Below, piece after piece: positions 4,636 through 52,279 of a stretch of DNA of 64,000 nt. This DNA comes from Clostridia bacterium (GTDB lineage: Bacteria > Bacillota > Clostridia > UMGS1883): the NCBI GenBank assembly GCA_045651805.1, contig JAZRTB010000026.1, positions 283 through 64,282 on the forward strand. Direction: 5' to 3'. Below the pieces are notes generated by a model. That model was not told the origin of the DNA. It saw nothing but the letters and a program-made list of their open reading frames with translations, and searched no databases. Each line of letters starts with the position of its first letter. Within the stretch, counting starts at the first letter, position 1. The translations under genes were made by a program, and so were the position numbers.

Positions 4636-4810
4636 CAGCAACGGAATGCGAAACCGCAACCGCAAATGACAAGCAAATGCAAAATGATGGTTGATATTTG
4701 TCCTTGACAAATATTTTTTTATTTTGTTTTCGCATCTCACTTGTCACTTTTCGTCAGAGAAGCAACTTCCCGTCTTCTCCACACTTAACGCAGCAGTTTC
4801 TACTTTGCTG
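4636..4810 (-). promoter_or_regulatory. THF (tetrahydrofolate) riboswitch aptamer carrying a large inserted hairpin
   Basis: The minus strand reads CAGCAA-AGUAG-AAACUGC-UGCGUUAAGUGUG-GAGAAG-ACGGGAAGUUG-CUUCUC...GCGGUUUC-GCAUUCCG-UUGCUG. GCGUUAAGUGUG and the GGGA.GU.G loop match the E. siraeum THF aptamer as I remember it. P1 (CAGCAA/UUGCUG), P2 (GAAACUGC/GCGGUUUC) and the pseudoknot (CGGGAAG/CAUUCCG) can all be drawn. Confidence 0.7.
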
Positions 4811-50451: not shown

Positions 50452-50612
50452 TAAAAATTTATCTTGCATTTTTGTTTCTTCTATATTATAATTGTTGATG
50501 TTGTTAAGAACTTCTTATTCTAACAAACAATTTAACTCGTGAAAGGTTGGTAGCGAATTAATCGGCGTTAAAAATCTGCGTTTACAAAGATTTAGCCGAT
50601 ATGAGCGAGACC

Positions 50613-50640
50613 TTGCACGAAAAGGAAAAACAAATATAAT
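50613..50640 (+). promoter_or_regulatory. sigma-A-type promoter reading into the pseudo-tRNA/insert/tRNA-Pro unit
   Basis: TTGCAC, 16-nt spacer, TATAAT. Confidence 0.45.
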
Positions 50641-50693
50641 GTGCGTAGTTTTGCAACAGCATAACGGAGCAACATTCATTTTTGTTTTGACGC

Positions 50694-50730
50694 CGGGGTG
50701 TAGCGCAAAAAGGTAGCGCTCTGCTTTGGG
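50694..50730 (+). pseudogene. tRNA-Pro 5' half (positions 1-37), degenerate D-arm
   Basis: CGGGGTGTAGCGCAAAAAGGTAGCGCTCTGCTTTGGG compared with the intact CGGGGTGTAGCGCAGCTGGTAGCGCGCCTGCTTTGGG at 50909-50945. Confidence 0.8.
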
Positions 50731-50861
50731 CATTGAGCACGACCGCCGTCTGTGACGGATGAAGGGAGTGCGAAATGGAGCAGTGGTCGACAGATGTCAA
50801 GGTGATTTATCACCGAAGGCAGATGTCGGGTACCACAACGAGGCGGCGTAGCCGAGGATGC
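50731..50861 (+). repeat. Structured insert R, copy 1 (carries a 29-nt internal insertion), followed by tRNA-Pro positions 38-49
   Basis: Identical to 51287-51388 apart from 50799-50827. It ends ...GGCGGCGT then AGC(CG)AGGATGCCG, which matches tRNA positions 38-49 with a 2-nt insertion. Confidence 0.8.
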
Positions 50862-50908
50862 CGAGGCATCCTGCGTAATTTTTAAACATTTTAACTTAAT
50901 AACTATTT

Positions 50909-50984
50909 CGGGGTGTAGCGCAGCTGGTAGCGCGCCTGCTTTGGGAGCAGGATGCCGCAGGTTCAAGTCCTGTCACTCCGACCA
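50909..50984 (+). tRNA. tRNA-Pro (anticodon UGG), CCA encoded
   Basis: Hand-folded cloverleaf: acceptor CGGGGTG/CACTCCG, D-stem GCGC/GCGC, anticodon stem CCTGC/GCAGG, loop TTTGGGA, T-loop TTCAAGT. Confidence 0.93.
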
Positions 50985-51028
50985 AAAAATACAGCTGGTG
51001 CTTTAGCATCAGTTGTATTTTTTTTATT
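50985..51028 (+). terminator. tRNA-Pro terminator
   Basis: TACAGCTGGTGC-TTTA-GCATCAGTTGTA (two G.T pairs) followed by TTTTTTTT. Confidence 0.65.
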
Positions 51029-51094
51029 TATTGAAAAGGACTTGAACCTTAAGAAGGCAAACGCCGTTAAGAAAACGATTGATAATCGTTTTTA

Positions 51095-51187
51095 GGGGTT
51101 TGGTGCGTAGTCCGGTACCGAAATGCGAAGCATTTGGGTGGACAAGCAGGTAAGACGCGTAGCGGCTGTGTCCTGTCACTCCGACCA
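51095..51187 (+). ncRNA. tRNA-Pro-ended chimeric sequence X (non-tRNA body plus exact tRNA-Pro 3' end with CCA), candidate RNA gene or pseudogene
   Basis: It ends GTCCTGTCACTCCGACCAAAA, identical to 50968-50988. Its 5' GGGGT can pair with the 3' acceptor strand (5 bp). It has its own downstream terminator. The body does not fold as a cloverleaf. Confidence 0.35.
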
Positions 51188-51226
51188 AAACCGAGTGTTA
51201 ACCTTTTGGTTGATGCTCGGTTTTTT
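51187..51226 (+). terminator. Hairpin plus T-run after sequence X
   Basis: CCGAGTGTTAACC-TTTT-GGTTGATGCTCGG followed by TTTTTT. Confidence 0.55.
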
Positions 51227-51272
51227 ATCAGCTGTAAAAGCTTGAACCTGCGGGAACGCGCGAACGAAGCAG

Positions 51273-51388
51273 GCGCCTGCTTTGGGCATTGAGCACGACC
51301 GCCGTCTGTGACGGATGAAGGGAGTGCGAAATGGAGCAGTGGTCGACAGATGTCGGGTACCACAACGAGGCGGCGTAGCCGAGGATGC
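51273..51388 (+). repeat. tRNA-Pro fragment (positions ~24-37) plus structured insert R, copy 2, plus tRNA positions 38-47
   Basis: GCGCCTGCTTTGGG is followed by a 102-nt sequence identical to copy 1. The left edge is part of the perfect palindrome AAGCAGGCGCCTGCTT. Confidence 0.8.
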
Positions 51389-51484
51389 ATTTCTGTCAAT
51401 CCATATAAAAAACTTTTTCATTTAAATTGACAAATAATGTATGTAGTAGTAAAATTATGTTATATTATGAAAAAGAGGTGCTTT

Positions 51485-52279
51485 ATGAACGAATATCAGA
51501 ACAACCAATTTGATCAGAATGCTCAGCCGTACCAGCAGCCTGTACAGAACGAGCAGTCTTATCAGCAGCCTGTCCAGAATTGGCAGCAGCCCGTACAACC
51601 TATACCGCCTGTACAGCCCCAGTGGCAACCGGCAATTCCCGCAAAGAAAAGCAACAATGTACTTATTTCTATGATTGCAGGATTCCTTTGCATTATTATG
51701 GCATTTTCAAGCGTTGCCTATGCTTGTAGTGTACGTATCTTTGATATTCCGATTATCAGCTTTGTATTTAACATGGCGGGAGAGGATGTAGACGAAGAGT
51801 TTGACGTGATGATTTCAGAAATGGATGACGAAGTAGACGAAATGAGCGGCGAAGATGAGGAAGAGTTTGAAGATATTATGGGAGTAACTCCTGATGAATT
51901 TGTAGATGACTTTTCAAGACTTTCCATTAATTCTATGATTAAATGGGGAGACAATATAGTCGATGCCGCTGACGAGATTGAAGGCTTTGACTTTGACAGC
52001 GAAGAACTTGCTTCTTTCTACTATCTCCACGGACTTCGCCTTGGTCTTTACATCTATGCAGCCTTTATTTCTCTCTTTGTTCTTCTCGGAACACTTCTTA
52101 AGAGAAAGGCTCTTACAATTGTAGGTATGGTTTTAGGCGCATTATACATTCTTACTCTTGGCGGAGTAGTGTTCCTTGTTCTTTTCCTTGTAACAGGTAT
52201 TGTACAGTGCGTTTTTGCAACACGTTACAGAAAAGAGCTTAAGGCAGCTTCTCAGCCTCCCGTATACCCTGCATATTAA
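51485..52279 (+). CDS. hypothetical membrane protein (Q/P-rich N-terminus, acidic central region, C-terminal TM helices)
   Basis: Start at MNEYQNNQF behind an AGAGGTG RBS; a TTGACA-17-TAAAAT promoter lies at 51428-51456. QQPVQN repeats, then TM, then a D/E-rich segment, then 3 TM segments. Confidence 0.6.
   Translation: MNEYQNNQFDQNAQPYQQPVQNEQSYQQPVQNWQQPVQPIPPVQPQWQPAIPAKKSNNVLISMIAGFLCIIMAFSSVAYACSVRIFDIPIISFVFNMAGEDVDEEFDVMISEMDDEVDEMSGEDEEEFEDIMGVTPDEFVDDFSRLSINSMIKWGDNIVDAADEIEGFDFDSEELASFYYLHGLRLGLYIYAAFISLFVLLGTLLKRKALTIVGMVLGALYILTLGGVVFLVLFLVTGIVQCVFATRYRKELKAASQPPVYPAY

Follow-up and report, generated by a model that had tools for sequence, protein, structure and literature searches.

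What is the insert that interrupts a partial copy of a proline tRNA gene in an uncultured Clostridia bacterium, directly after position 37 in the anticodon loop, and what could it do there? In the 64,000-nt stretch of genomic DNA analysed here (referred to below as the window), a pseudo-tRNA-Pro half is followed by this structured insert, designated R, and both stand upstream of an intact tRNA-Pro gene. The preliminary description of the window saw in the insertion point the 37/38 position of archaeal and eukaryal tRNA introns. The anatomy of the locus, the fold of R and its fate among relatives are considered here.

Results

Anatomy of the tRNA-Pro locus

ARAGORN and Rfam recognised a single tRNA-Pro(UGG) in the window. 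The elements grouped around this gene are as follows.

50909-50984, plus strand: intact tRNA-Pro(UGG) gene (ARAGORN; 67.7 bits with the Rfam tRNA model)
50694-50730, plus strand: 5' half of a pseudo-tRNA-Pro, equivalent to tRNA positions 1-37 (84% identity, E = 1.7e-4, from a sensitive alignment of the intact tRNA-Pro against the whole 64-kb window)
50875-50908, plus strand: A/U-rich spacer between R and the tRNA, named leader Y (recognised by its fast divergence)
50984-51023, plus strand: intrinsic terminator of the tRNA-Pro transcript (18-pair stem followed by a T run)
51241-51390, plus strand: second, degenerate R unit (repeat comparison, tRNA alignment and covariance model)

The assignment of 50694-50730 to tRNA-Pro positions 1-37 with an altered D-arm was confirmed, with a changed D-loop (AAAAAGGTA) and the loss of one base at position 26/27. 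R starts directly after G37 and occupies 50731-50849; its measured length is 119 nt, and not about 116 nt as first given. It is followed at 50850-50863 by AGCCGAGGATGCCG, within which AGGATGCC corresponds to tRNA positions 41-48, and A38 and G39 show no change in any copy of R. Thus, the earlier proposal that the tRNA resumes as positions 38-49 with two extra nucleotides was correct for the 41-48 match and for the invariant A38 and G39, but the GCCG after the insert is the 3' strand of a covarying mini-hairpin (P7, see below) that belongs to R. Neither a T-arm nor a 3' acceptor strand was found downstream of R in the window, in agreement with the first observation.

The tRNA positions 1-37 form a direct repeat (50694-50730 and 50909-50945), which is perfect in the related loci L002 and L011. 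The segment bracketed by the tRNA repeats comprises approximately 180 bp and carries no ORF. Within R itself, GGAGCAG (50776-50782) is identical to tRNA positions 36-42. The neighbouring genes at the locus are PHP, MraZ and GH42. Additionally, a 21-nt repeat of the tRNA 3' end is located at 51170-51190, where it flanks another small module.

A second copy of R, overlooked in the preliminary description, is located at 51277-51388, and the covariance model described below matched it at 51268-51390 with 143.6 bits. This copy is identical to the first one except for a 29-nt deletion between CAGATGTC repeats, which corresponds to the apical hairpin 50799-50827 of copy 1. Its upstream tRNA part is restricted to positions 24-37 (51273-51286) and forms a palindrome before the second copy with an inverted, diverged tRNA fragment (51241-51276, the reverse complement of positions 24-59, 78% identity); its 3' flank breaks off after GAGGATGC. 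Thus, the window contains two copies of R, both at tRNA-Pro.

Fold of R and its covariation

The fold was derived from an alignment (A2) of 11 R copies with RNAalifold and subsequently refined. The elements of the refined model within the window are listed in 5' to 3' order.

50731-50777, plus strand: hairpin A (covariation)
50778-50782, plus strand: linker GAGCA between hairpins A and B (sequence comparison)
50783-50836, plus strand: hairpin B (covariation of helices P5 and P6)
50837-50854, plus strand: linker AACGAGG and mini-hairpin P7, CGGC-GUA-GCCG (covariation)
50855-50874, plus strand: terminal hairpin of the beta and gamma strands, stem 50855-50872 (match to the tRNA minus strand; minimum-energy fold)

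The model comprises 33 pairs, and 96.1% of its 362 cells are paired, with 17 of the 33 pairs altered on both sides, in a comparison behind which only about six independent lineages stand. None of 500 shuffles equalled the real alignment, and controls with slid partners were only 28-52% paired. R is, therefore, a conserved multi-hairpin element whose fold is strongly supported by compensatory changes. Moreover, since G·U pairs occur on the tRNA strand, the folded molecule is RNA, or at least the tRNA-sense strand.

The helices follow each other in the order P0, hairpin A, hairpin B, mini-hairpin P7 and terminal hairpin. P0 is formed in the window by GUAG (50713-50716) and CUGC (50721-50724), after which UUUGGG follows; across copies it reads GYAG with CUGC, i.e., tRNA positions 19-22 and 28-31, with 100% of cells paired and U:G or C:G at one pair. 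Hairpin A consists, from its base to its tip, of P2a (CAUU/AAUG), a GA/GA loop, P2 (GCAC/GUGC), an invariant GA/GA tandem loop, the 2-bp helix P3 (CC/GG), a 1x5 internal loop (G versus AUGAA) and P4 (CCGUC/GACGG) with a triloop; 9 of the 10 pairs of its helix 25-38/58-72 and 3 of the 5 pairs of P4 are altered on both sides. Hairpin B begins with P5 (GUGGU/ACCAC) and a conserved 3-nt GGU bulge (GGU/GGC across copies), followed by P6 (CGACA/UGUCG), a GA/GA tandem loop and a variable apical hairpin. It is the long form of this hairpin that is conserved in L001, L002 and L003; in type II copies the apex is exchanged for GCGAGC...GCGAGC, again a tandem G·A motif. Further downstream, the linker is an invariant AACGNGG across copies, and P7 reads CGNC-GNA-GNCG, the middle pair being G:C in seven copies, C:G in three and A:U in one, with 100% of cells paired.

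The terminal hairpin is formed by two strands that both refer to the tRNA: beta, AGGAUGCC (50855-50862), is invariant and identical to tRNA positions 41-48, and gamma, GGCAUCCUGC (50865-50874), is the exact reverse complement of positions 39-48. Across copies, R ends at its 3' side with an invariant GAGGAUGCC that folds back on GGCAUCCUGC; gamma carries uncompensated mismatches in several species. An alternative partner of beta is GGCA at 50729-50732 (helix P1, GGCA:UGCC), which is 98% paired and shows wobble-compatible changes in L014. The GCAG of the linker could likewise pair with CUGC of the old anticodon stem (helix 15-18/75-78; 98% paired, invariant). Covariation cannot pick the closer of the junction among P1, P2a and the old anticodon stem because these candidates are nearly invariant.

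Two of the helices recognised at the outset, the hairpin CCGTC-TGT-GACGG and the helix GTGGT...ACCAC, correspond to P4 and P5, and both covary. The hairpin CGAC-AGAT-GTCG holds for the deleted second copy only, but the same arm is a longer hairpin in copy 1. The suggested long-range pairing CCGCC/GGCGG had to be given up: its 82% pairing did not exceed that of shuffles, and it is incompatible with the covarying P3, P4 and P7. A closing helix between tRNA positions 18-36 and the region 3' of hairpin B, which appears in minimum-energy folds, was also rejected, since it cannot coexist with the covarying P7 and since its central pair is disrupted in most species.

Comparison with introns and known RNA families

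According to the intron reading, R would be an intron-like element at the tRNA 37/38 position, and its removal would be due to an archaeal-type endonuclease, to self-splicing or to self-cleavage; in a variant of this reading, the upstream 5' half would be combined with the 3' half supplied by the gene downstream. R does start exactly after G37 and is strongly structured, and in the whole window precursor, folded at minimum energy, CGGGGUG of the upstream half is paired with the 3' acceptor strand of the genuine tRNA, the result being a tRNA-like shape with a giant insertion. However, a T-arm or 3' acceptor strand follows R in 0 of 14 copies from nine genomes, so the significance attached to position 37/38 is not borne out, no copy in any genome having a 3' exon. 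In L003, L007 and L014 the 5' half is degenerate or absent, yet R is intact. Intron-aware ARAGORN with relaxed thresholds returned only the intact tRNA and two implausible low-score calls elsewhere, with nothing at the pseudo-tRNA, and Rfam gave no group I, group II or ribozyme match. The bulge-helix-bulge considered earlier cannot be drawn in the conserved structure, where UUUGGG (6 nt) lies opposite GA (2 nt) beside hairpin A and 3-nt bulges separated by 4 bp do not occur. Moreover, the intact tRNA-Pro downstream would make splicing purposeless. The intron reading is thereby largely refuted and seems to us extremely unlikely; R is neither spliced nor an intron, and the anticodon loop is most likely just the place where a copy of the tRNA gene was hit or expanded.

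R resembles the archaeal and eukaryal introns at 37/38 in its structure and in its insertion directly 3' of position 37, but differs from them in having neither a 3' exon nor a bulge-helix-bulge, in its bacterial host and in a tRNA part that is not conserved as tRNA. Group I introns occur in the anticodon loops of bacterial tRNAs, for example tRNA-Leu and tRNA-Ile, and R shares this location; unlike them, it has no 3' exon, and no match to RF00028 was obtained for the window, L007 and L014 at E up to 5-10. Its length of 119-150 nt is too short for a group I core, the smallest known group I intron having about 200 nt.

The searches against known families led to no other identity. With Rfam 15 (4227 models), only tRNA was found in the whole window at gathering thresholds, and again only tRNA for the R locus and the divergent homologues L007 and L014 at E up to 5-10, by which three sequence types of R were covered. 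The Rfam check proposed at the outset, therefore, yielded neither an intron nor a T-box model. No match to R was found by BLAST in plasmid and phage collections or by scans of viral contigs, and literature searches found no description of the element, which appears to be undescribed. R resembles the orphan RNAs of Rfam, such as Clostridiales-1 and raiA, in its narrow range and its covariation-supported, multi-hairpin structure, but matches none of the 4227 models by sequence or structure.

Several particular identities were considered and dropped. A T-box leader was rejected on the grounds of no RF00230 match, no terminator between R and the tRNA, and a GGU bulge that does not covary with the discriminator base. 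Inspected by eye, the conserved loops either lacked the bases that define a T-box, hammerhead, K-turn, double T-loop, SRP or CsrA-site, or had them without conservation between R types. A group II intron fragment (domain V/VI, D1-D4) was dismissed with no Rfam match, and an insertion sequence end or MITE, with only tRNA-Pro-linked copies in 217 kb and no plasmid or phage matches. As to coding, a 30-aa ORF from ATGAAGGGAG has ATA as its start codon in L001, and both its frame and those of the long minus-strand ORFs are broken by 29-nt indels and by the apex replacement.

Promoter, leader module X and probable co-transcription

Upstream of the pseudo-tRNA half, two further elements were recognised.

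50464-50492, plus strand: sigma-A-type promoter TTGCAT-17-TATAAT with an A/T-rich upstream tract (conserved in 11 loci)
50540-50693, plus strand: leader module X, a second conserved structured region (RNAalifold)

In the 11 loci, the CTTG and T.TATTATAAT of this promoter are invariant, and it is always the first element upstream of the tRNA-Pro leader. It was not listed by a simple scanner because TTGCAT shares only three of six bases with TTGACA. The promoter initially placed at 50613-50640 is superseded, as it lies inside the structured module X and has no counterpart in relatives. Module X, preceded by a tRNA D-arm-like fragment (GGTTGGTAGCGA), was modelled by RNAalifold from the window, L003, L014 and L001 with 35 pairs, 9 of which are altered on both sides, and gave no match in Rfam.

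No terminator was found between R and tRNA-Pro; the T run of hairpin 50855-50872 is displaced, and it is missing in other species. Since the pseudo-half and R lie on the same strand as the intact tRNA-Pro and upstream of it, with no terminator between them, their co-transcription, as already suggested in the preliminary description, is very likely, and X, R and tRNA-Pro very probably constitute one transcript up to the terminator at 50984-51023.

Distribution and evolution among relatives

In total, 14 copies or fragments of R were collected from nine genomes or metagenome contigs: L001 (two), L002, L003, L004 (two), L006, L007/L008, L011 (tandem), L012 and L014. A scan with a degenerate pattern, in which each species was represented by one genome, detected R in two Clostridia MAGs, in one stretch per genome; of the metagenome pattern scans, the first gave nothing and the second one contig, and further loci came from contigs reached by walking out from MraZ homologues. 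The known range of R is one clade of uncultured gut Clostridia. The copies adjoin tRNA-Pro(UGG); in L011 alone, the contig breaks off within the tandem array and does not reach a complete tRNA. A covariance model built from ten R copies and searched against 217 kb found no copy away from tRNA-Pro. At the same time, this model scores positions 18-49 of the genuine tRNA as an "empty" R with the insert deleted, from which it follows that R is lodged in a tRNA scaffold, after G37 and before approximately position 41. The anticipated embedding of R in tRNA-Pro-like sequence was, thus, borne out in all copies found, with its structure conserved.

The tRNA part of the element is less stable. Only approximately positions 18-37 of the pseudo-tRNA half are conserved across species, and in L003, L007 and L014 the 5' half is reduced to about this part, without positions 1-17, with R intact; this half is, thus, dispensable as well. 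Interspecies identity is 70-93% for R, 55-74% for the stretch from beta to the tRNA (50863-50908) and 99-100% for the tRNA. Three sequence types of R are distinguished, over which the tandem G·A loops and linkers are invariant.

These data bear on the view that R is non-functional debris, that is, a decaying tRNA pseudogene with a chance insertion, kept by linkage to the essential tRNA and by gene conversion. The decay of the tRNA-like flanks, the loss of R in several relatives and the identity of the two window copies, which fits gene conversion, are in line with it, but covariation in five helices, conservation of R well above that of the adjacent spacer and the invariance of the G·A loops and linkers across such divergent types are not, and we regard this explanation as very improbable.

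The presence of R varies strongly. L017 has a bare promoter and tRNA without R; in L010, R is absent and a different leader is joined straight to the tRNA; in L009, from the same MraZ cluster as L010, only the last 35 nt or so of R are left. In L012, R was precisely deleted upstream of the tRNA, leaving the scar CTTTAGGCATCCTGCG, which is what a deletion between the GGCAT repeats on either side of R would produce. R units stand wholly or partly in tandem in L011, L006, L002 and L003, and presence/absence polymorphism was found within one MraZ 90% cluster (L009 versus L010; L003 versus L004). What is seen of excision or integration is, thus, a static presence/absence polymorphism. R is dispensable. 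Moreover, its types are incongruent with MraZ/MraW similarity: the window and L007 share 89% identity in MraW and 63% in R, while the window and L002 share 82% and 93%, respectively.

The copies located after the tRNA terminator decay, as in the window (29-nt deletion, truncated flank), L004 (truncated) and L012 (five broken pairs), which fits a function, or expression, tied to the leader position.

The tRNA-Pro locus is clearly a recombination hotspot, because a 21-nt repeat of the tRNA 3' end is found there and recombinase genes stand beside the tRNA in L007 and L017. The combination of R, spacer and tRNA positions 1-37 behaves as a cassette that duplicates and collapses through the tRNA repeats, and it may have been exchanged between species. 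The main alternative is, accordingly, that R forms the centre of a very small cassette that integrates or recombines, moving in and out of the tRNA-Pro gene via the 37-nt 5'-half repeat, whether as the degenerate remnant of an island targeting the anticodon loop or by homologous recombination between species sharing an identical tRNA; its conservation would then reflect recent spread and not a host function. The junction lies in the anticodon loop, which is reportedly a known crossover sublocation for integrases. A displaced partial tRNA and a complete tRNA flank the segment, with a direct repeat of the tRNA segment at both ends as in att remnants, and such pairs of partial and complete copies are the classical signature of integration at tRNA genes (PMC9897764; PMC4383910). 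The polymorphism inside one MraZ 90% cluster, the tandem units in L011 and L006, the incongruence of R types with MraZ/MraW identity, the 21-nt repeat flanking another small module, and the serine-recombinase genes adjoining the tRNA in L007, with a DUF4368 gene in L017, point in the same direction.

However, no recombinase lies next to R in any locus or within the bracketed 180 bp or so, tRNA-derived sequence is present on both sides of R (18-37 and 41-53), unlike a simple att junction, only one locus is found per genome, and there are no phage, plasmid or viral matches. In addition, R evolves slower than the spacer, and the many compensatory changes that distinguish the R types indicate that the structure has been under selection for a long time. 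Taken together, we consider a cassette as the whole explanation unlikely; cassette behaviour notwithstanding, the fold of the R copy in the leader position is maintained by selection.

Discussion

In our opinion, R is probably an uncatalogued, conserved, structured RNA domain in the 5' leader of the tRNA-Pro(UGG) transcript of a clade of uncultured Clostridia. Judged from the anatomy of the locus, it would have originated from a partial tandem duplicate of the tRNA-Pro gene, which would have acquired a hairpin-forming sequence of about 120-150 nt in its anticodon loop, between G37 and A38, and lost everything 3' of approximately position 48-53. The comparison of copies has shown that what is still under selection is the chain of helices P0-A-B-P7-terminal hairpin, with its tandem G·A loops and invariant linkers, and not a tRNA. 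Transcription from the promoter at 50464-50492 would yield one precursor with module X, the pseudo-tRNA half, R, the short spacer and the tRNA; the cut at the tRNA 5' end expected from established RNase P biology would then free the leader as a separate, highly folded RNA.

As to function, our guess, made with low confidence, is that R may act at the RNA level in connection with tRNA-Pro expression. One possibility is that the leader, once released, is a stable RNA whose production follows that of tRNA-Pro and which binds a protein or a ligand; the other is that R acts in cis and influences how the precursor folds and matures. The cis option is suggested by three features: beta mimics tRNA positions 41-48, gamma is antisense to 39-48, and beta has two possible pairing partners, gamma and the 5' end of R. 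A released leader with a protein or some other molecule as its partner is in somewhat better agreement with the tandem arrays and with the conserved tandem G·A loops. Against any function as a leader RNA stands the fact that R is absent, reduced or deleted in relatives; the tandem arrays (L011, L006) and the incongruence of types with MraZ/MraW also fit a selfish or exchanged cassette.

A more elaborate form of the cis option, which we hold to be improbable, is that R is a sensor domain gating the maturation of its own downstream tRNA, riboswitch-like, only on a tRNA and not on an mRNA. In such a switch, folding of the R junction (P1, GGCA:UGCC) would free gamma (GGCAUCCUGC), and gamma, by binding the nascent tRNA, would hold it in a fold other than the cloverleaf; in the absence of P1, gamma would remain confined to the terminal hairpin. 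As an extra layer, an upstream 5' half, where it is intact, could rival the true one for the only 3' half available, resulting in a precursor with two alternative folds. In the fold of the full window precursor, gamma pairs with the tRNA and the pseudo-acceptor strand with the real 3' acceptor strand; if the calculation omits the pseudo-acceptor strand, R, the beta:gamma hairpin and a normal cloverleaf make up the fold of lowest energy in the window, L001 and L002. The beta/gamma/tRNA switch is kept as a low-probability idea only, because it has no thermodynamic support without the pseudo-acceptor strand; the uncompensated mismatches of gamma in several species also count against it.

Considered as a leader domain, R can be compared with several known systems. 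The 3' external transcribed spacer of the Escherichia coli glyW-cysT-leuZ transcript acts as an sRNA sponge. Like this spacer, R is a non-tRNA part of a tRNA transcript that would be freed by processing and made in step with the tRNA, but it is a 5' leader domain, far larger, more structured and tRNA-derived. YrlA Y RNAs and mascRNA are tRNA-derived or tRNA-mimicking molecules that keep the "elbow" half with the acceptor and T-arm; R also descends from part of a tRNA joined to another module, but keeps only the D-stem and the anticodon 5' strand (18-37) together with positions 41-48. In Islander-type islands, integrating elements leave partial tRNA copies beside a complete gene (PMC4383910; PMC9897764). 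R resembles these islands in that truncated and complete same-strand tRNA copies bracket a foreign segment, in the junction in the anticodon loop and in the segment being present, absent or tandem among relatives. At the same time, it is unlike them in the small size of the segment (about 180 bp, without an integrase), in the displaced piece being the 5' half and not the usual 3' piece, and in the tRNA sequence on both sides of R with its covarying RNA structure.

If functional, R would represent a new RNA family that arose from a duplicated tRNA gene and a clear case of a tRNA copy converted to another use without being separated from the parent gene, and it would be made in fixed proportion to an essential tRNA. 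It is also a candidate for RNA-level control of tRNA maturation. For annotation, the locus is a warning that partial tRNA matches beside tRNA genes are not always integration scars. The tRNA-Pro of these abundant uncultured gut Clostridia would be made as a precursor with a leader of several hundred bases composed of modules X and R, and such a long structured leader is unusual for bacterial tRNA genes. Additionally, in several loci a UGUUCUUUG-like sequence follows right after the promoter, which we take to resemble the boxA antitermination element of stable-RNA operons.

tRNA-derived sequences around the tRNA-Pro gene

Beyond the structured insert R within the pseudo-tRNA leader, two further elements were delimited on either side of the intact tRNA-Pro gene (50909-50984).

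50540-50693, leader module X, a second conserved structured region located 5' of the pseudo-tRNA
51096-51190 (terminator to about 51230), a third tRNA-Pro-derived element, also present at the related clostridial loci L003, L009, L010 and L014

The third element is about 95 nt long and has a diverged 5' part, UUUGGG with a 6-nt insert (UGGACA) directly after it, and a terminator of its own. Its 3' end matches tRNA positions 59-76 exactly and forms a 21-nt direct repeat of 50967-50987. It is kept in five genomes, its fold is not a cloverleaf, and a comparison with Rfam gave no match. Two readings fit its appearance: it looks like a gene for a small tRNA-derived RNA or else like the attR end of a very short integrated segment.

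Immediately 3' of the tRNA terminator, on the same strand as tRNA-Pro, lies AGGACTTGAACCT (51037-51049), a perfect 13-nt reverse complement of positions 51-63 in the T-arm. A small hairpin and then a second terminator-like hairpin (AAAACGATTGATAATCGTTTTT) follow it, and the whole block (about 51030-51097) is kept in L003 (twice), L009, L010 and L014. Several same-strand stretches of the locus are antisense to tRNA-Pro, namely this segment, the gamma segment (50865-50874) and 51241-51276.

On the 5' side, module X contains 35 predicted pairs, nine of which are changed on both sides among four genomes. A fragment resembling a tRNA D-arm stands on its 5' side; in L014, the module is bracketed by a fragment of tRNA positions 1-12 and the pseudo-tRNA, which gives it the appearance of a further insert within a tRNA copy. 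Further upstream, just 3' of the conserved promoter (50493-50540 in the window, and likewise in the aligned loci), stands ATGTTGTT (TGTTCTTTG in L006), which we take to resemble boxA, the antitermination element of stable-RNA operons.

Probable mobile elements and exchange at the locus in related Clostridia

Just 3' of tRNA-Pro, L007 (1-2319) encodes a large serine recombinase together with a Bro-N protein, and L017 (185-538) a DUF4368 protein, which suggests that in some relatives mobile elements have integrated next to this gene. The sequence found 3' of the third element in L003 recurs as the tRNA trailer/terminator in L006, L007 and L017.

Contigs L003 and L004 encode the same MraZ protein, yet the sequence 3' of tRNA-Pro is wholly different: L003 carries the third element, and L004 has in its place a truncated second R copy (529-675), whose P4 helix and flank belong to the L001 type. 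This points to recombinational exchange between lineages at the tRNA-Pro locus.

Other features of the window

A tetrahydrofolate (THF) riboswitch aptamer was detected at 4637-4809 on the minus strand with 72.3 bits, above the Rfam gathering threshold. One open reading frame directly follows the degenerate second R copy of the window.

51486-52279, plus strand, open reading frame (listed from 51437)

Its protein, which matched no Pfam family, has a Q/P-rich N-terminus with QQPVQN repeats and an acidic central part, and is predicted to contain membrane segments. The frame has a strong promoter-like site of its own (TTGACA-17-TAAAAT, 51427-51455).
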